Of a stretch of DNA of 64,000 bases, positions 18,985-57,203 are shown piece by piece. Under the pieces are notes generated by a model that was not told the origin of the DNA, searched no databases, and saw only the letters and a program-made list of their open reading frames with translations. Each line of letters starts with the position of its first letter. Position 1 is the first letter of the stretch. Position numbers and translations under genes: made by a program. This DNA is from a virus (Duplodnaviria > Heunggongvirae > Uroviricota > Caudoviricetes). The stretch is taken from IMG/VR virus record IMGVR_UViG_2718218304_000001, positions 32,001 through 96,000 of that record; one strand, given 5' to 3'.

Positions 18985-19570
18985 ATAAACTCCTGAATCA
19001 AGCGCCGCGCCGATTTTTTTTTCCTCGCGCGTGCGCACACGCGTGCGTGTTAATAATTATTAAAATAAACAAATTACTTCCCAGAACAGGTTTTTATAAA
19101 CCTGAACTGAACGAACGAAGTGAGTGAAGTTCACCTCGAACGAAGTGAGAGGTTGTCTTTTCAGGTAATACTCTCCCAGGGAGGTGAGTACAAAATTTCC
19201 TCACCAACCTGGTCGTTTCATAACCTGAAAAGTTATGACCTAAGTCTACTGCCAGCTTAGGCTTGGGAAGTTATGGATGACAGCACCCCAGAACCGAGAT
19301 CTTCCCACACTTTATGAAGGGGAGTACTGGATTCAACCTCTCGAAACACCCCAGACTCGACAATCATAAAGTGACCCTTGTCTCTGCTCACTTTGGTTCC
19401 CCCTTCCCCAACCCCTAAACGGTGCCGGTTCTACGCTGGTAGTGAGCTTTTTTAAACCTGACGCCAGTGACGCTTACCCCCACCCATCAGGTCGAGCCTC
19501 CAGTCTACGACTGGAAACTATCAGATCTTAGCACTTACAATTCACTTTATGAATAGTTTGTACTTATCTA

Positions 19571-19825
19571 TCATTTCGATTGATTATTTTTTCGACCATG
19601 TAGTTGAACATTCAAGGCAAACACCTCGTTGATCAACTCACCTAAAAGCTGTTCAACAAGTTCGCGATGCTCCCCAAGATGCAAGCACTTAATTGCCCAT
19701 TCGTACAAGTTGAAAGCCTGCTCACGATCTTTCATCATTTCACGAGCCTGGGCCAGAAAATCGCTCTCTACGAGCGCAACGACATTAGTCGGGTATGACA
19801 TGTTGGTTTCCTTAAAGTGGTTCAT
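19571..19825 (-). CDS. hypothetical small protein
   Basis: ORF track only. Confidence 0.3.
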   Translation of the reverse strand: MNHFKETNMSYPTNVVALVESDFLAQAREMMKDREQAFNLYEWAIKCLHLGEHRELVEQLLGELINEVFALNVQLHGRKNNQSK

Positions 19826-34970: not shown

Positions 34971-35615
34971 TTACAGCGCGTCAGTGGGCTTTTTACGCGC
35001 TGCGTTTATGCTTATGACGCCAGCTTTTGGACGTGGGTCAACAAGGTTAAGCTCTTCTTCACTGTGGTATTCGAGGTCGAACTCACGTTTTACATGTCTG
35101 ATGTAGATTGCGGTGAGCAGGCTATCTTTGGTCAGAAAGTGTCCGTAGGATTTGCGGATCACTTCTTCTACCTTCTCGATTTTCTCACCACCCATACAGA
35201 GATGATTAAACCGGCTGTGTTTCCGCAACATTTCGTCTACTGGGCCTGAGTAAACCTTGTCTACTTTCCCAAAACGGATGATTTTCCCTGTGTCTGCGGA
35301 TACGAGGCAAATCAGCTTGTCTGGTGATAAACGATCTCGCCACGTCACACCTGAACGGAGTGTGTTGAAGTAGGGAGCATCCAATCCGATGATCGGTTTA
35401 CGAAATGCGAGTAATGGAACGTACCTGATGCAACTGTTTAAATGAAAATTCACACCAGCCTTATCAAGTTTAATTCTGGTTTCGTAGATCGGGCACTTTG
35501 CCGCTATACCGCAGATGTCACAAAGCAACTTCTGCTTATTCAGGTTGGAATTTGATTCGATAGTGTAGGAGCCGTCTTCAAGACGACGAACCCAGCGCGT
35601 GCGTTTTAGATCCAT
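34971..35615 (-). CDS. hypothetical protein
   Basis: ORF track only. Confidence 0.3.
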   Translation of the reverse strand: MDLKRTRWVRRLEDGSYTIESNSNLNKQKLLCDICGIAAKCPIYETRIKLDKAGVNFHLNSCIRYVPLLAFRKPIIGLDAPYFNTLRSGVTWRDRLSPDKLICLVSADTGKIIRFGKVDKVYSGPVDEMLRKHSRFNHLCMGGEKIEKVEEVIRKSYGHFLTKDSLLTAIYIRHVKREFDLEYHSEEELNLVDPRPKAGVISINAARKKPTDAL

Positions 35616-35814
35616 ATGTCATTTTTCTGTGATTGTTAGCCGAGGCAACGATAACCCACCAGGTGCGCCGAAGGTAGTAAATGCCTGTTTTAATTATTCA
35701 CATATCCACAGGATAGATCCTAATAAAGAGATCCATAGATAGATCCTTGTATAGATCAAATAAGATCCCCGATCGCTGTAAGCCGCGCCACGACTGGTCT
35801 GAAGCCATGTTCAT

Positions 35815-35925
35815 GTATGCTGTCAGCGGTAATTGATAGTCTGTCAGCGGTTCACCGTATGCTGCCAACTGTTTTTGGTATTCTGTCAGCGGCAAATCAA
35901 GTATGCTGTCAGCGGTTGAATGACA
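35815..35925 (+). repeat. upstream iteron cluster (~5 copies, consensus TATGCTGTCAGCGGT)
   Basis: Direct repeats read in sequence immediately 5' of the rep start. Confidence 0.7.
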
Positions 35926-35936
35926 AAGGTGTCCAC

Positions 35937-37031
35937 ATGTCCACAAAAAATAAAAAAGGTAAAAATAACAAAGAAGTAGAAGATAATCTCGACAACTTTG
36001 AAGAAGGTTCCCTTGAATTGTACACAGGGGAACTTGTCCCTAATAGCAACAATACAGTCCAACCAATTGCGTTGATGCGGCTGGGATTGTTCGTGCCCAC
36101 GCTCAAGGGGACAAAATACAGCAAGCGTAACAAGCCAAATGAGATCGATGCTTCAAAGGAGCTTGTCCAGCTCGAAGTAGCCCGTTCTGAAGGCTATTCC
36201 GATATCAAGATAACCGGTCCTCGTCTCGACATGGATCATGATTTCAAAACGTGGGTGGGCGTTGTGCGTTCGCTGGCAGAATACGGCGAACCTAATGGTC
36301 GTGTCGAGTTAAGCATCACGAAATTTGCGAAGTTTTGTGGCTATCCATCGTCACAGATCCGCAAAACACTCCGCGACCGGCTTACAAACAGTCTTTTGAA
36401 GATCATGCGTACAACTCTGTCTTTCCAGAGAACGTATGAAGAAAAGAACGTCGACGGCTCTAACAAGATCTCGCTTCTGATGGTGCACCTCATCAATAGC
36501 GTGGACTACAACGAGCAGAAAGATACGGTGGTGTTCTATGCAGAACCGAAGCTGGCCGAACTATATCGCTTTGACCATAAGGTTCTTTTGCAGTTAAAGG
36601 TTATCAATAAGCTACCACGCAAAGAAACAGCACAGGCTCTGTACACCTTCATCGAAAGTCTTCCAACCAAGCCTGCGCCGGTATCGCTTGCTCGATTGCG
36701 TGCGCGACTCAATTTGAGTAGCAGGAATGTCAGCTCGCAGAATCAGACTATACGTAACGGCTTAAAAGCTCTCCAAGATTTGGGCTATCTCGAATACAGC
36801 GAGATTAAGCGTGGGCGGTCGATCTATATCCAGATTCACAGCCGCAATCCAAAACTTAAAGTCGCACCGCCAAAACCTGAAGACATCGAACCCAAAAAAC
36901 CAGATGAGAAAGCCGGGGAAATTGATGCTAAACAGAACATTATCAACAAGATAACTGAACTTTCGCAGAATTTGACGCCTGAAAATATCAAGATGATTGA
37001 GATCCTTTCCAATAGTCTCAAACTGCTTTGA
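35937..37031 (+). CDS. plasmid-type replication initiator (Rep), iteron-binding
   Basis: Basic N-terminus; flanked on both sides by iteron arrays (P1 RepA-like organisation); start refined to the ATG at 35937 after AAAGGTG. Confidence 0.6.
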   Translation: MSTKNKKGKNNKEVEDNLDNFEEGSLELYTGELVPNSNNTVQPIALMRLGLFVPTLKGTKYSKRNKPNEIDASKELVQLEVARSEGYSDIKITGPRLDMDHDFKTWVGVVRSLAEYGEPNGRVELSITKFAKFCGYPSSQIRKTLRDRLTNSLLKIMRTTLSFQRTYEEKNVDGSNKISLLMVHLINSVDYNEQKDTVVFYAEPKLAELYRFDHKVLLQLKVINKLPRKETAQALYTFIESLPTKPAPVSLARLRARLNLSSRNVSSQNQTIRNGLKALQDLGYLEYSEIKRGRSIYIQIHSRNPKLKVAPPKPEDIEPKKPDEKAGEIDAKQNIINKITELSQNLTPENIKMIEILSNSLKLL

Positions 37032-37032
37032 T

Positions 37033-37560
37033 ATGCTGTCAGCGGTGAAATGTATGCTATCAGCGGCTATTTTTCTGAAAAGTATGCTGTGAACGGTTAA
37101 AGATATGCTACCAGCGGTATAGTGAGATGAACGTATGCTGTGGGCGGTAAATCATCTATCACCACTCAATGCTCTTTTATACCTCCCCAGTGGTTACTAA
37201 CCTCGAAGAGTGCATTCCATATAGGTTTGCGCTCACTAACATTCTATTCCCATTGCGCTGATTGCTTGTAGTGAAAGGCATTTATTGCCTGCTGCTCCCT
37301 GATAGAACGTATGCTGTCAGCGGTGTTTTATTGAGGAATTTTTGTTTGGATATGCTATCAGCGGTAATTAATGGTATATGTCAGACCTTCGTATGCTGCC
37401 AGCGGTAATTTTGTTCTGGTTATACCCATACCGGTACACATTATTCATGCAATGTCTTAAGTATGCTGTCAGCGGTAAAAAATCGAGTAAAGTATGCTGT
37501 GAGCGGTGAGATAGACTCTCGATATGCTATCAGCGGTAGTTGATTGTGTATGCTGTTAGC
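37033..37560 (+). repeat. downstream iteron array (~12 copies of (G/A)TATGCTGTCAGCGGT with variants)
   Basis: Copies near 37033, 37053, 37085, 37105, 37133, 37310, 37352, 37393, 37462, 37491, 37521, 37546. Confidence 0.75.
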
Positions 37561-37610
37561 GGTGACGACTATGAAATATGACTGCGGCACGTTCCGCAGT
37601 CAGTTTGCAT

Positions 37611-37823
37611 TTAGTGTATTTTCTTTAACAGACCCCAAAGTGTTCCGGCTTTTGTAGTCAGTTTTCCTGTTTCTGGATCGTACATACGCCATTCACGCCG
37701 CTGGTGGACGATATACCCATCTTCACGTTCCAGACGCTCAAGAATGCCAGACTGCTTGAAACCCTTAGCACGCCAGTATCCGCTTGTTTTCTCGATTTCC
37801 AGACCTGCCAGTGTTAATGCCAT
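37611..37823 (-). CDS. hypothetical small protein
   Basis: ORF track; stop/start overlap with the upstream gene. Confidence 0.3.
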   Translation of the reverse strand: MALTLAGLEIEKTSGYWRAKGFKQSGILERLEREDGYIVHQRREWRMYDPETGKLTTKAGTLWGLLKKIH

Positions 37824-39209: not shown

Positions 39210-41549
39210 TTACTCTTCTACTGACTCGGTGGGGTTGTCTTTTGCTCTTCGGTCGTCGATTGCCTGCAAAGCCGCAATGATTTCAGCCAGTGGCTTCTCC
39301 CGATACATCTCGACGATCTGCGATTTGGTGTATTTCTTGTCACCAATTTCAACTCGCCCGCTGGCGTTCTTTGGCAGGTATCCTTCTTCCAGCATGTACT
39401 CGACGAGCGATTCGATAACGTCGAGGCCACGAGTAGGATCGAAGTAGAATTTCCAGGTGCATTTGCCATACGGTGGTGCAACTTTGTTTTTGATGCATTC
39501 TGCGCCTACGTCCTGGCCGATCTTCTCTTTACCATCCTTCATCACCGATGCACCAAGACGGATACGTACAGAAGCGTAGAACTTCGGTGAATCTCCACCT
39601 GGCGACGTAGTAGGGTCGCCAAACATTACACCGATTTTTGTGCGAACCTGATTCAAGAAGATGATGCAGGCGTTGTATTTGCGTGCCCACAAAGCCAGAG
39701 TAGGGAAGTTCGCACTCGTCGCACGAGCCAGTGCCGTATTGTCGTTCATGTTTAGCTGATCTTTGTCTTTGGCAGTGCCTTCAGCCATCTTTTCGAACTT
39801 CTCGGCTTTGGAGTTCGGAACCATAGACGCAAGAGAGTCAGCCACGATACAGATAGGTGCTGATTCGGGGATAAGCTCTTCATCACGAACCAATTTAAGT
39901 ATTGTGCCGATCAACTCTACAGAGTCTTCGAAGGTATCTGGCTGCTTGTATACCCACTGACCGTCGTCTTCGTCGGCGTTCAGTCCGTTCGCTACCGCCA
40001 GACCAACGTCGAAACTGTTTTCGTGGTCAAGGAATACGGCCAGACCATCCTGTTTTTGTGCTGACACCATCGCAGCCGTCGCGAGGAATGTGTTGTGGCT
40101 GATAATCCCGTTAGACCAGAAAGAGTGTGTTTCCGGCATCGCTACGTCGAACGTTGGTGCTTCACCTTCCTCAATAGCCACGACTTCGTCGTAGAACAAG
40201 TTAGAGTCAATTACCGCTGCCAGTTGTGCAAACAGATGCTCGTTAAAACGATTCTTTCTGCCAATGAAGGAGACATAGATTTCTCGCAGTTTGTCTATTC
40301 CGACACGATCGCCGCGGCCAATAACGTGATCTACCAGAACGTAGTCTTTACGAGAGGTCTTGGTGAGTGACTCGTAGAGTGATTTCACTAAGCCGCTGAT
40401 GTGCGGAACGTAGCCTAAATAAGTGCGGTCAAAACTAATGTCCCGTTTGGTTGCCACTGCTAAACGAGCCGGAGACTCGAACCCAATCGTTGACAGGAAA
40501 AGGTCGTAGTTAGAGCCACTGAATGACAGCCGGTAATATATGTTTTTATAACCTGCGACGTGTTTTTCAGAGATAGTTGACGTAATCCCCAGATTCAGGA
40601 GCATGAGGCGAATTTGCTGTAGCAGCAGCCCACTCGCGCTCACAACCTCAATGCAGCGACCATCATTGACGTGGCATTCCAGCTCAAAGTAGCCGCGAAG
40701 GAATGCAATTTGAGCCTCGCTATTGGCGCGACGCACACTCAACGGAACCTGCTTGCCAGCAGCTTTCTCATACTCCAGACCATATTCTTTAAAAAGCAGC
40801 GAACGCACCTCTTTGCTAAACAGCACATGGTCTTCCGAGCCGTTATGTTTTCTCGTAACTGGCATCTTGTCTGATACCAGCGAAATGAGGCGGTAGTACT
40901 CATCCTTGATGAAAGGATCTGTGTTAGAAAAATTCACTGAATTTTCAGAGGCCACGTATCCGTCAGCAATTAAATAGCCCATCAGTTTTGCGATATTGGC
41001 ATCCAGGTGCTGATCGCCGAATTGATGTGTGCCAACCATTGAAGGAATCGTGTCGCCTACACTGATTTTTTCAGCATGTCGCCAGACGACATTACCTAAG
41101 TCGTCAACCACACGGATTGGGTGACGGAACGTAGCCTCGATATAACCGCCTGATGCCAGCTTAATACGCTTGAATTTGCGACGGTTGTTCCATGTCAGGT
41201 GTGAGGTCTTCTCTATCACGCCATTTTCATTGATGAGTCCAACGTTATGCTCTACATCGCGAGTAGTGCATGTCGCTTTGTACCCTTCAATCTCAAACAA
41301 CTCTTTCACTGTTACCATTCCACGCTCCGTCAGCAGCATGGTGTCTGCGGTAACACATTTCCCCGCGCTTGGTGGCCCGAATACTTCTACGATACGACCA
41401 CATGGGAAACCGCCATCGTAACGACCGGAAATAGCTTTGTTTAACGGAGGAAAGCCTGTGTCAATCCAATGAGTTACTTTCTGAATTTCGTCGTTGCTAC
41501 CGATTTTCTTTTTCAGAGCAAGTGCCAGTGCGGATTTTCCTTTTGCCAT
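39210..41549 (-). CDS. RecA/UvsX-like recombinase interrupted by an intein
   Basis: Exteins total ~357 aa and read GRIVEVFGPPSAGK|T...FLNQVRTKIGVMFGDPTTSPGGDSPKFYASVRIRLG, paralleling RecA (GRIVEIYGPESSGKTT...[32 protein letters not shown]). Confidence 0.8.
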   Translation of the reverse strand: MAKGKSALALALKKKIGSNDEIQKVTHWIDTGFPPLNKAISGRYDGGFPCGRIVEVFGPPSAGKCVTADTMLLTERGMVTVKELFEIEGYKATCTTRDVEHNVGLINENGVIEKTSHLTWNNRRKFKRIKLASGGYIEATFRHPIRVVDDLGNVVWRHAEKISVGDTIPSMVGTHQFGDQHLDANIAKLMGYLIADGYVASENSVNFSNTDPFIKDEYYRLISLVSDKMPVTRKHNGSEDHVLFSKEVRSLLFKEYGLEYEKAAGKQVPLSVRRANSEAQIAFLRGYFELECHVNDGRCIEVVSASGLLLQQIRLMLLNLGITSTISEKHVAGYKNIYYRLSFSGSNYDLFLSTIGFESPARLAVATKRDISFDRTYLGYVPHISGLVKSLYESLTKTSRKDYVLVDHVIGRGDRVGIDKLREIYVSFIGRKNRFNEHLFAQLAAVIDSNLFYDEVVAIEEGEAPTFDVAMPETHSFWSNGIISHNTFLATAAMVSAQKQDGLAVFLDHENSFDVGLAVANGLNADEDDGQWVYKQPDTFEDSVELIGTILKLVRDEELIPESAPICIVADSLASMVPNSKAEKFEKMAEGTAKDKDQLNMNDNTALARATSANFPTLALWARKYNACIIFLNQVRTKIGVMFGDPTTSPGGDSPKFYASVRIRLGASVMKDGKEKIGQDVGAECIKNKVAPPYGKCTWKFYFDPTRGLDVIESLVEYMLEEGYLPKNASGRVEIGDKKYTKSQIVEMYREKPLAEIIAALQAIDDRRAKDNPTESVEE
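40092..41357 (-). mobile_element. intein (422 aa) with LAGLIDADG homing endonuclease, inserted in the P-loop of the RecA-like gene
   Basis: Starts with Cys right after GPPSAGK, ends ...IISHN followed by Thr; internal LMGYLIADGYV and FLRGYFELECHV blocks. Confidence 0.75.
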
Positions 41550-45503: not shown

Positions 45504-45832
45504 TGATGCCCGCCAATTGGCGGGCATCTGTTCTCTGTAAAGGTGTCTGGCATCGTCTGGTTCGTTAACGTTTACTAAACCAATGGTGACAAAAATTAGT
45601 TATCTTTGAAAAATAAAGGTTGCATGAAAAGAAGGGGTATGCGTTAATAGCATCGTTGGTTTGCAAGACAGACCTTATGTAAGCAGTTTTAGTAAAGCAG
45701 TCTCAGTTCAGTGTTATCTTCTGATTTCCCTTCTTCGTGAGTCTCCTCCTTAAGTGCCTAAGTAAGTCCCAATCTATACAGATCAAATTCTCGCCGCACT
45801 ATGTGGCTCACAAAATTAAGAAGGTAATATCT

Positions 45833-46048
45833 ATGTCTAATAAAATGACTGGTTTAGTAAAATGGTTTAACTCTGATAAAGGCTTTGGCTTTATTTCTCC
45901 TGCTGATGGCAGTAAAGATGTTTTTGTACATTTTTCGGCAATTCAGAGTAATAATTTCCGCACTTTGGAAGAAGGCCAGCAGGTCGAATTCTCTATCGAG
46001 AATGGGGCTAAAGGCCCAGCAGCAGCAAATGTCGTTGCTCTAAGCTGA
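45833..46048 (+). CDS. cold-shock protein, CspA family
   Basis: [23 protein letters not shown]...VFVHFSAIQ; start refined from the track (45737) to the ATG at 45833, preceded by AAGG and a long 5' leader. Confidence 0.85.
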
Positions 46049-46326
46049 TTCAACGCTGATGATCCTCATTTCTACAATAACGAAGACGGTGTAAGCCTGA
46101 GTGGATAGATTTGTAGGATTGTACAAGTTGAATAAATTAGCATGGTAAGGCCATGCTAATTAAATCGACACAACGGCCAGTTTATTCCATAAAAGTGAAT
46201 TGCCCATTGTGGCGAAATGCGGGGTTGCCGCATGAATAGTCAAAGGCAGAAGCTAACTGCCGGCATGGCAAAACAAAGTGCGTAAGAGGAGTGACTTCCT
46301 CAACAAGCGCCATAATTCTTTATAAA

Positions 46327-56549: not shown

Positions 56550-56636
56550 TGGCGGAGAGTAATGGAATCGAACCATCATCGCTTGCGCAATGGGACGGTT
56601 TTCAAGACCGCTTGAGCACCATGCTCCCTACTCTCC
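56550..56636 (-). tRNA. tRNA-Ser (anticodon UGA), long variable arm
   Basis: Hand-folded: acceptor GGAGAGT/ACTCTCC, anticodon loop CUUGAAA, T-loop TTCGATT, encoded CCA; D-arm is atypical. Confidence 0.5.
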
Positions 56637-56956
56637 AGCTATTGTGATGGTCGGTGCTGAACTCCGACACAGGGTTGTAGCAAGCCCCGCAAAGCGCGCA
56701 CTACTGTAGTTGCGGCACATCAGCCTGTGCATTCATCACAACGGTAAGATCACTACCTTTCGACCAGTCATTGTGCACATGAACGACGATTAACCGTAAT
56801 GATCTTATCGTTGTGTTGTGAAGCCAGATGCTTATCTTCTGGTTGCTTCAAAGAGCTGCACTTCCTCACAACGGTAAGAGCACTGGTCTGACTCTATCGA
56901 TTTACGGGCTTGTGGGTCAGTATCGCCGATTCGCCCAATGCTCTTACCTGTTGTGT

Positions 56957-57032
56957 TGGTGCCGGTTAACGGGATCGAACCGCTGACATCCTGCTTACAA
57001 GGCAGACGCTCTACCAACTGAGCTAAACCGGC
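56957..57032 (-). tRNA. tRNA-Thr (anticodon UGU)
   Basis: Hand-folded: acceptor GCCGGTT/AACCGGC, D-arm GCTCAGTTGGTAGAGC, anticodon loop CUUGUAA, T-loop TTCGATC, CCA. Confidence 0.7.
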
Positions 57033-57036
57033 AATT

Positions 57037-57123
57037 TGGTGGGGAGTGATGGAGTCGAACCACCCGAGTCGCAATGACAGTAGATTTACAGTCTACCCCG
57101 CTGCCCCTACGGACTAACTCCCC
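57037..57123 (-). tRNA. tRNA-Tyr (anticodon GUA), long variable arm
   Basis: Hand-folded: acceptor GGGGAGT/ACTCCCC, anticodon loop CUGUAAA, T-loop TTCGACT, CCA. Confidence 0.6.
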
Positions 57124-57128
57124 TAAAT

Positions 57129-57203
57129 TGGCGATGGTGGGTGGATTCGAACCACCGACCAGTTGGTTAACAGCCAACTGCTCTACCGCTGAGCTACACC
57201 ATC
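57129..57203 (-). tRNA. tRNA-Asn (anticodon GUU)
   Basis: Hand-folded: acceptor GATGGTG/CACCATC, D-arm GCTCAGCGGTAGAGC, anticodon loop CUGUUAA, T-loop TTCGAAT, CCA. Confidence 0.7.

Follow-up and report, generated by a model that had tools for sequence, protein, structure and literature searches.

The replicon of P1 (oriR/incC - repA - incA, K02380) is the classic system with which the locus described here has to be compared. In P1, oriR and RepA serve the plasmid state and the lytic origin is a separate one, and the incA array is formed by nine repeats. Iteron plasmids follow a general mechanism, with control by titration and handcuffing (PMC6312765), and the P1, N15 and SSU5 types of phage-plasmid have been reported to exist exclusively outside the chromosome (PMC9600943). 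In SSU5-like plasmids of Klebsiella a single iteron-regulated replicon has been reported, with a conserved iteron motif located 3' of repA (PMC6735626), and plasmid typing tools list SSU5 replication genes under IncFIB (10.1101/2025.09.12.675607; PMC7969092). Both the SSU5-supergroup phage-plasmids and their replicons, which are of the IncFIB type or of rep_cluster_488, are already known and described in the literature.

The locus treated here lies in a window of 64 kb (the whole stretch of DNA analysed) and is very probably the replicon that maintains a phage-plasmid of the SSU5 supergroup in the plasmid (lysogenic) state, a homologue of P1 oriR-repA-incA with an iteron specificity of its own. 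Judged from the alignments, its kinship with the classic P1 replicon is one of homology and goes beyond analogy. An earlier note on this DNA had proposed a P1-style origin followed by a copy-control array, which is borne out by the RepA homology, by an oriR that can be aligned and by the matching incC/incA layout. The start that it gave for the locus (35815) has to be moved, however: the functional unit begins at about 35694, some 120 bp further left, and includes the DnaA boxes, the GATC cluster and the GC-rich spacer. The features of the locus, in window positions, are the following:

35694..35710, + strand: two tandem DnaA boxes, TTATTCACA and ATATCCACA, with a 1-bp overlap, bordering the origin on its outer side (TTWTNCACA scan, up to 1 mismatch)
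35711..35775, no strand: AT-rich block (GC 32-33%) carrying six GATC (Dam) sites, presumably where the origin unwinds and is sequestered by SeqA
35776..35814, no strand: GC-rich spacer (..GCCGCGCCACGACTGG..; GC 58%) separating the AT-rich region from the iterons
35815..35917, + strand: origin iterons, five direct repeats with a 16-bp core and 21/21/21/23-bp phasing, counterpart of P1 incC
35926..35945, + strand: Shine-Dalgarno-like AAGGTG (35926-35931) and DnaA-box-like 9-mers GTGTCCACA and ATGTCCACA over the rep start codon, read from the sequence
35937..37031, + strand: rep, coding for a 364-aa initiator homologous to P1 RepA but extended at the C-terminus by a tail of about 55 aa (Pfam, BLASTP, PHROG and alignment)
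37031..37149, + strand: control iterons, group 1, five direct copies spaced 21/30/21/30, 1 bp past the rep stop codon
37150..37308, no strand: iteron-free spacer inside the control array, which holds a conserved element (37185-37250)
37187-37203, no strand: motif CCAGTGGTTACTAACCT with the palindrome GGTTAcTAACC, within the conserved element
37309..37564, + strand: control iterons, group 2, seven direct copies spaced 41/41/70/31/30/26 (repeat search)
37579..37602, no strand: GC-rich hairpin of 9 bp that resembles a terminator on either strand, separating the array from a convergent gene (37611-37823)

The rep ORF is intact. A homology search of Rep had been named as a check by the earlier note, and BLASTP matched the protein to P1 RepA with 129/278 identical residues (46%) and an E value of 4e-86, covering residues 20-284 of the 286 in P1 RepA; the family of Rep is settled by this identity. 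The tblastn comparison of Rep with P1 and P7 gave E 2e-64, the match to PHROG 775 had E 4.6e-133, and the Pfam domain Rep3_N (WH1, PF01051) was recognised with E 3.9e-9 and 37.5 bits (cut-off 22.4). The WH2 domain (Rep3_C, PF21205) found no match in Rep at E <=0.01, and in the P1 and SSU5 RepA proteins it is marginal, just under the cut-off; no NCBIfam family was matched by either the window Rep or P1 RepA. Rep is 86% identical to that of the pKPHS1-type replicon ('IncpKPHS1', pKpn group) of Klebsiella SSU5-like phage-plasmids (the Klebsiella relative in what follows) and 48% identical to the Rep of the SSU5-type replicon, found in SSU5, pHCM2, pMT1 and Cyrano. Alignment with the Klebsiella, SSU5, pMT1 and P1 proteins reveals the tail of about 55 residues, predicted to be helical, which P1 RepA lacks and to which the tail of SSU5-type Rep is similar. 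The generic Rep_3 iteron plasmids (F RepE, R6K pi, pPS10 RepA) have in common with this system the Rep3_N (WH1) domain and an iteron-bound initiator, but they are distant, and PDB sequence searches with Rep alone and with a five-member family profile matched no chain even at E 10. A single-sequence AlphaFold2 model of Rep reached a mean pLDDT of 39.6, too poor to read the fold.

The start of rep is probably at 35937, as annotated in Escherichia phage PhiR41_1, and many RefSeq plasmid records have been rotated to begin exactly at this position. PGAP calls a longer gene of 404 aa from 35817, with an ATG inside iteron 1, which is probably an over-extension. In public plasmid records (more than 100) the same sequence is labelled as a RepB-family initiator.

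The order of the parts is shared with P1: tandem DnaA boxes, AT-rich GATC block, GC-rich spacer, five direct iterons phased at about 21 bp, rep, and an array that starts from the rep stop codon. To the left of the iterons the nucleotide alignment follows P1 oriR part by part. The DnaA boxes are matched in the alignment by the P1 site annotated for DnaA binding (K02380, 729-746) and the AT-rich stretch by the Dam-site repeats annotated there, and the window spacer GCCGCGCCACGACTGG is near-identical to the P1 spacer GCCGCGCCACGTCTGG, being conserved in the Klebsiella relative as well. The six GATC sites (35716, 35730, 35742, 35754, 35764 and 35771) form the densest cluster per 80 bp in the whole window, whose average is 4 GATC per kb. 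The five direct iterons, about two helical turns apart between the AT-rich region and rep, have as P1 counterpart the copies 14 to 10 (846-949). At the right end of the origin, GTGTCCACA and ATGTCCACA are weak DnaA-box matches with 2 mismatches each, to which DnaA might bind; the Klebsiella relative has GTATCCACA (1 mismatch) in this place and P1 has CTATCCACA. GC skew shows only a weak flattening near 34-38 kb, with no clear switch at the locus, and an Rfam search of the locus at E <=1 gave no match to any known family of antisense or regulatory RNA.

When both strands of the window were searched for TATGCTGTCAGCGGT with up to 3 mismatches, 21 matches appeared versus 1.38 expected by chance (100 shuffles: mean 1.38, sd 1.15, largest 6). 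The locus accounts for seventeen of them, all on the + strand: 5 precede rep and 12 follow it, which are the numbers that the earlier note had estimated; its iteron variants GCTATCAGCGG, GCTGTGAGCGG and GCTACCAGCGG were all found too. The information profile of the iterons consists of a 16-bp core, R-TATGCTGTCAGCGGT, and a weak A/T tail. Upstream, the copies start at 35816, 35837, 35858, 35879 and 35902. Downstream copies are present as claimed, but they do not fill 37033-37560: they form one group of five (starts at 37032, 37053, 37083, 37104 and 37134) and another of seven (37310, 37351, 37392, 37462, 37493, 37523 and 37549), separated by an iteron-free spacer of about 160 bp, with a step of 176 bp from 37134 to 37310. 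With P1 the repeat has only the T(A/G)TGCTG half in common (TATGCTGTCAGCGGT versus ATGTGTGCTGGAGGGAAA), and the P1-type iteron GATGTGTGCTGGAGGGAAA, the 19-bp repeat of IncY specificity, is absent from 35600-37650 at up to 5 mismatches; an incompatibility specificity other than that of P1 is therefore expected.

The Klebsiella relative has an identical iteron core and five origin iterons with the same phasing, its downstream iterons are all direct, and the Klebsiella plasmid NZ_CP107348.1 contains 14 copies of the same 15-mer as the window iterons. On the other hand, it has 9 downstream iterons instead of 12, a shorter internal spacer and a flanking backbone only about 76% identical to that of the window, and MOB-suite types it as IncFIB and the E. 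coli record as rep_cluster_488. Comparison of both loci gives 91% conservation at iteron positions and 57% in the inter-iteron spacers, with rep 76% identical at the nucleotide level; the iterons are more strongly constrained than the spacers. The number and phasing of the origin iterons are invariant (5 copies, 21/21/21/23) in the window, PhiR41_1 and the Klebsiella relative, whereas the downstream number varies (12, 9 and 9, respectively).

These data bear on the idea that the replicon is a decayed relic with disused repeats, the element being kept by another origin such as a phage DnaB-like helicase and DnaE module. The element does encode its own dnaE, DnaB-like helicase, ligase and RNase H. 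Besides, a consensus scan of the + strand over 35600-35940, which takes in the iterons and the sequence upstream of them, matched no sigma-70-type promoter, and the positions aligned with the annotated -35 and -10 of P1 are, by eye, poor promoter matches. Nevertheless, such a relic is very improbable: the intact rep ORF is 98-100% conserved in more than 110 plasmids, the iterons are more constrained than their spacers, the origin iterons keep their number and phasing, typing of the E. coli plasmid NZ_CP126951.1 yields no other plasmid-type replicon, and P1 offers a precedent for the coexistence of separate plasmid-state and lytic origins.

As regards the control array, it lies directly 3' of rep, the position of incA in P1 (K02380, 1866-2150). 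All 12 control iterons are direct and arranged in two groups, whereas a scan of P1 incA gives a mixed array with 3 direct and 5 inverted repeats. PhiR41_1 lacks three group 2 iterons through an 87-bp iteron-to-iteron deletion. The conserved element inside the array resembles, in inverted orientation, the downstream arrays of SSU5 and pMT1 (local score 43; shuffle mean 19, maximum 29, 0/300). Its motif CCAGTGGTTACTAACCT occurs once in the window, is present in the Klebsiella relative and is absent from P1; the CCAGTGGTCACTAACCT motif lies after the array in the Klebsiella relative and inside it in the window, and the element has been kept in or beside the control array across two unrelated iteron specificities.

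It could be argued that the array is mainly a partition site (centromere) or a platform for another protein, rather than a copy-control region, in view of this non-iteron element, which interrupts the array and is common to SSU5 and pMT1 despite their other iterons, and of the lack of an adjoining par operon, since P1 has parAB-parS directly downstream and the window replicon does not. We regard this as a very unlikely role. The array units share their 16-bp core with the origin iterons and would therefore be expected to bind Rep, and they are placed directly 3' of rep as in incA; moreover, a small ParA-type ATPase locus exists elsewhere on NZ_CP126951.1 and the viable phage PhiR41_1 has lost three copies. 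Somewhat less improbable, although still doubtful, would be an extra layer of control absent in P1, in which the palindromic element CCAGTGGTTACTAACCT and the Rep tail would couple plasmid-state replication to a phage or host factor, for instance at the lysogeny-lysis switch, and an exchange of the 1.79-kb cassette would provide escape from incompatibility.

The SSU5-type replicon occupies the same genomic slot, from an ASCH-like gene to a cra-like gene, and has the same DnaA and GATC origin core as the window. It differs in its iteron (ATCCACTGTAGAGAGTA), in its downstream iterons, which are in both orientations, and in the tandem duplication of origin core and iterons; no SSU5-type iterons were found in the window locus. 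Up to the edges of the cassette, the backbone of Escherichia phage Cyrano matches the window at 96-98% identity; this identity stops at 35803 and resumes at 37594, and window positions 35804-37593 have no blastn-detectable similarity to Cyrano. An iteron-rep-iteron cassette of about 1.8 kb is replaced by an SSU5-type one in an otherwise near-identical backbone, and the exchangeable cassette has its right boundary at the hairpin region, from which the Cyrano alignment continues. The direct-only control iterons, the varying copy number and the exchange for an SSU5-type cassette are minor variations.

The earlier note had also supposed a chromosomal context, in which an integrated plasmid replicon could cause replication interference or mark a recent integration. 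The window does contain many housekeeping-like genes (metG, apbC, nrdAB, thyA, folA-like, rnhA, dnaE, cspG and four tRNAs) and no phage structural genes. However, over its 2,051 bp the locus shows 100% identity to the circular E. coli plasmid NZ_CP126951.1 (108.5 kb, non-mobilizable, rep_cluster_488 as its sole MOB-suite replicon type), whose tail, tape-measure, capsid, portal and terminase genes are at 19.5-47.7 kb, outside the window. E. coli plasmids of the same kind, about 110 kb long, cover 96-100% of the remaining window with 97-99% identity, and three 25-kb stretches, which jointly make up the whole window, are collinear with such plasmids and with phage genomes; window positions 25001-50000 are 98.4% identical to Cyrano over 93% and 78.9% identical to SSU5 over 75%, and the locus is 98.8% identical to PhiR41_1. 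The housekeeping-like genes belong to those same plasmid and phage records, and neighbours such as nrdAB, thyA, metG, dnaE and the tRNAs are typical cargo of the SSU5-related phage-plasmid family. Of 5,426 complete E. coli genomes, 121 contain the replicon, in 186 places, all of them on plasmids and none chromosomal. The host element is extrachromosomal, like that of P1, also a phage-plasmid, and a chromosomal location, refuted for the databases searched, has next to no probability.

For the plasmid-state replicon, a mechanism may be proposed by homology with P1. Rep monomers would bind the five phased iterons (35815-35917) while host DnaA would occupy the boxes at 35694-35710, and both proteins would jointly open the adjacent AT-rich, GATC-dense stretch, where host replication proteins would be loaded. 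This stretch would need Dam methylation and would be sequestered while hemimethylated. Rep bound to the origin iterons would also repress rep, and the twelve downstream iterons (37031-37564) would cut copy number through Rep titration and Rep-mediated pairing ('handcuffing') with the origin iterons. The geometry of this pairing may differ from that of P1 and SSU5, because all the control iterons are direct here and mixed in those replicons.

The locus has little weight as a discovery, since the same sequence is present in more than 100 public plasmid records and the family is in the literature. Its practical value is that of a correct annotation: the window belongs to a phage-plasmid and not to a chromosome, the origin reaches about 120 bp further left, and rep probably starts at 35937 rather than at the 35817 of PGAP. 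Related to this, a modular and exchangeable replicon cassette bears on how these carriers of resistance genes are typed and on their incompatibility. If the doubtful extra control layer did exist, the swap of the 1.79-kb cassette would be a way of escaping incompatibility among co-circulating phage-plasmids.

The replicon studied here belongs to an extrachromosomal element. Its 2,051-bp locus matches NZ_CP126951.1 with 100% identity. This is a circular 108.5-kb plasmid, non-mobilizable, from an avian pathogenic E. coli; its sole typed replicon is rep_cluster_488, and its genes for tail, tape measure, capsid, portal and terminase lie at 19.5-47.7 kb. The window and this plasmid have in common nrdAB, thyA, dihydrofolate reductase, metG, apbC, rnhA, RecA-with-intein and SbcCD-like genes; because of indels they are close but not identical end to end. 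Both window ends are covered to 96-100%, at 97-99% identity, by other ~110-kb E. coli plasmids. The locus shows 98.8% identity with Escherichia phage PhiR41_1, and window 25001-50000 shows 98.4% identity over 93% with phage Cyrano and 79% over 75% with Salmonella phage SSU5. Pfeifer et al. (PMC7969092) describe the SSU5 supergroup of phage-plasmids, to which these relatives belong; plasmid typing tools list the replication genes of its members under IncFIB (10.1101/2025.09.12.675607).

A search of 5,426 complete E. coli genomes found the locus in 121, at 186 places, all of them on plasmids and none on a chromosome. Published work likewise describes phage-plasmids of these types as exclusively extrachromosomal (PMC9600943). 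The earlier note had proposed a replicon embedded in a chromosome, or a recent integration; the collinear plasmids and phages, together with the lack of chromosomal copies, refute this idea. The housekeeping-like genes that hinted at a chromosome are the usual cargo of the SSU5 phage-plasmid family; neither this replicon nor the family that carries it is new.

Other elements of the window include a RecA-like protein of 779 aa (39210-41549, - strand) interrupted by a LAGLIDADG homing-endonuclease (intein-like) insert, named 'LAGLIDADG family homing endonuclease' by PGAP and RecA in phage records. Four tRNA genes (Ser-tga, Thr-tgt, Tyr-gta and Asn-gtt) are clustered at 56550-57203 (- strand), and a cspA thermoregulator (Rfam, 185.7 bits; 45655-46073, + strand) lies upstream of a cspG-like cold-shock gene.

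The open reading frame between the iteron arrays, as given by the ORF lister and by RefSeq/PGAP, is 35817-37031 (404 aa), and its start codon is an ATG within iteron 1. The frame is open from 35817 through the iterons only because these are spaced in multiples of three (21-bp phasing), and the start of this call is probably over-extended. The likely start is 35937, giving 364 aa; AAGGTG lies 5 nt upstream, the PhiR41_1 annotation begins rep at the matching position, dozens of RefSeq plasmid records are rotated so that this is their first base, and the N-termini of the homologues line up here in the protein alignment.

Rep matches Pfam Rep3_N (WH1; 37.5 bits, cut-off 22.4) and PHROG 775 (E 4.6e-133), and the homology search suggested in the earlier note identified it as a homologue of P1 RepA, with 46% identity (E 4e-86) spanning RepA residues 20-284 of 286. 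Identity is 48% with the RepA proteins of SSU5 and pMT1 and 86% with the Rep of Klebsiella pKPHS1-type plasmids. A C-terminal tail of ~55 aa (residues 310-364; window 36864-37028), consisting of a Pro/acidic linker followed by predicted helices, is common to the Rep proteins of the SSU5 supergroup, whereas P1 RepA lacks it. PDB sequence searches for Rep gave no match, an NCBIfam search found no family, and the single-sequence structure prediction had a pLDDT of 39.6.

With up to 3 mismatches allowed, the 15-mer TATGCTGTCAGCGGT has 21 matches in the 64 kb of the window, where dinucleotide-preserving shuffles lead one to expect 1.38 (largest shuffle count, 6). Of the 21, 17 are inside the locus, every one on the + strand. 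A position-by-position count defines the iteron core as 16 bp, R-TATGCTGTCAGCGGT, plus a weak A/T tail. The features of the origin and of the arrays are the following, K02380 being the GenBank record of the P1 plasmid replicon.

Features of the locus (window coordinates)
35694-35710: two tandem DnaA boxes; P1 counterpart, the annotated DnaA site (K02380 729-746)
35716-35774: six GATC sites, within an AT-rich stretch (GC 32-33%); P1 counterpart, the annotated Dam sites
35816, 35837, 35858, 35879, 35902; + strand: five origin iterons upstream of rep, phased at 21/21/21/23 bp
37032, 37053, 37083, 37104, 37134; + strand: control iterons downstream of rep, first group (five)
37310, 37351, 37392, 37462, 37493, 37523, 37549; + strand: control iterons, second group (seven), after a 176-bp step

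Direct reading and a repeat search confirmed the iteron counts and variants noted earlier. The downstream array had been described as filling 37033-37560; its copies exist, but in two groups with an iteron-free spacer of ~160 bp between them. Within rep, at 36271-36285, there is an inverted iteron-like CGCTGGCAGAATACG with 4 mismatches to the 15-mer, probably a chance match.

The origin reaches further to the left than had been noticed: a base-by-base alignment with P1 oriR covers window 35690-35815. The GATC cluster is the densest in the window, the GC-rich spacer GCCGCGCCACGACTGG is nearly the same as that of P1, and the ~110-bp origin-core segment shows 83% identity with many P1-like plasmids. 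Two 9-mers that overlap the rep start weakly resemble DnaA boxes, whereas the Klebsiella relative and P1 have better DnaA boxes at the rep-proximal end of the origin. The GC-skew profile gave no clear origin signal at the locus, and an Rfam search of it matched nothing.

The RepA identity and the oriR alignment thus strengthen the P1-style reading to true homology. Nevertheless, there are differences from P1. The iteron sequence is unlike that of P1, sharing only the half-site T(A/G)TGCTG, and no P1-type iteron was found at the locus. All 12 control iterons are direct and their array is broken by a spacer, whereas the P1 and SSU5/pMT1 arrays have both orientations. Unlike P1, there is no parAB operon directly downstream; NZ_CP126951.1 encodes a small ParA-type ATPase at a distance of ~30 kb, beyond the part that corresponds to the window.

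By homology with P1 (K02380 annotation, PMC6312765 and established P1 knowledge), Rep monomers would fill the five origin iterons and host DnaA would bind the flanking boxes, after which the methylated AT-rich GATC block would open and the host replisome would be loaded. Hemimethylated GATCs would delay re-initiation. Rep sitting on the origin iterons may repress rep transcription; a consensus scan of the + strand upstream of rep found no sigma-70 promoter, which makes autorepression the weakest link of the mechanism. The downstream iterons would titrate Rep and pair with the origin iterons (handcuffing), keeping the copy number low; iteron control in general is described in PMC6312765. A separate set of replication genes on the element encodes DnaE, a DnaB-like helicase, a ligase and RNase H. 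In P1, lytic growth is served by oriL and RepL, and this module presumably plays the same role. A phage N-6-adenine methyltransferase gene lies at about 19204-19797 (- strand; coordinates from a near-identical record). If GATC-specific, the enzyme would parallel P1's own Dam and be relevant to the methylation of the GATC-rich origin.

Between the window and the Klebsiella relative, identity in the origin array is 91% at the 16-bp iteron positions and 57% in the inter-iteron spacers; it is 76% in the origin core and, at nucleotide level, 76% in rep. The deviant third iteron (TATGCTGCCAAC.GT) is kept in place. Origin iteron number and phasing do not differ between the window, PhiR41_1 and the Klebsiella plasmid, whereas the downstream iterons number 12, 9 and 9, respectively. 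In PhiR41_1 an 87-bp iteron-to-iteron deletion, relative to window 37472-37558, takes out exactly three control iterons; PhiR41_1 is an isolated phage, and its array represents natural copy-number variation. Conservation of this kind is evidence that the repeats are functional, and the pattern is as expected if the upstream set were an origin under geometric constraint and the downstream one a dosage element.

The spacer of the control array holds a conserved non-iteron element at 37185-37250, which aligns significantly, inverted, with part of the SSU5 and pMT1 arrays (score 43; shuffles: mean 19, maximum 29, 0/300 reaching 43). Its core motif CCAGTGGTTACTAACCT (37187-37203), unique in the window, holds the 11-bp palindrome GGTTAcTAACC. 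In the Klebsiella relative the motif directly follows the array; it is absent from the P1 replicon.

The 214-aa gene at 34971-35615 (- strand) lies outside the exchangeable cassette and is always divergent from rep, both in the window and in the Klebsiella plasmid, SSU5, pMT1 and Cyrano. It matches PHROG 2105 and has no Pfam match; the Cyrano annotation calls its counterpart an ASCH domain protein.

Identity between Cyrano and the window is 96.4% as far as 35803 and 97.6% from 37594 onwards, whereas blastn finds no similarity within 35804-37593. These 1.79 kb are exactly the iterons, rep and the control iterons; in the same slot Cyrano has a cassette with an SSU5-type RepA (48% identical at protein level), and in SSU5 and pMT1 this slot holds ATCCACTGTAGAGAGTA iterons together with a tandem duplication of the origin. 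In these two, the origin core (DnaA box, GATC block, iterons) is repeated ~375 bp apart upstream of repA (positions 1780-2400 of the SSU5 sequence compared, 1603-2225 of the pMT1 one), in contrast to the single copy of the window. The left breakpoint, just ahead of the first iteron, separates it from the part of the origin used by host factors, and the right one is within a hairpin at 37579-37602, after the last iteron. The window's cassette type is also found on the more distant Klebsiella backbone. The breakpoints and the flanking identity indicate that the specificity cassette moves as one unit between backbones that are nearly identical. This agrees with the literature, in which the phage part is described as conserved and the plasmid part as variable (PMC7969092); plausibly, the swap is driven by incompatibility.
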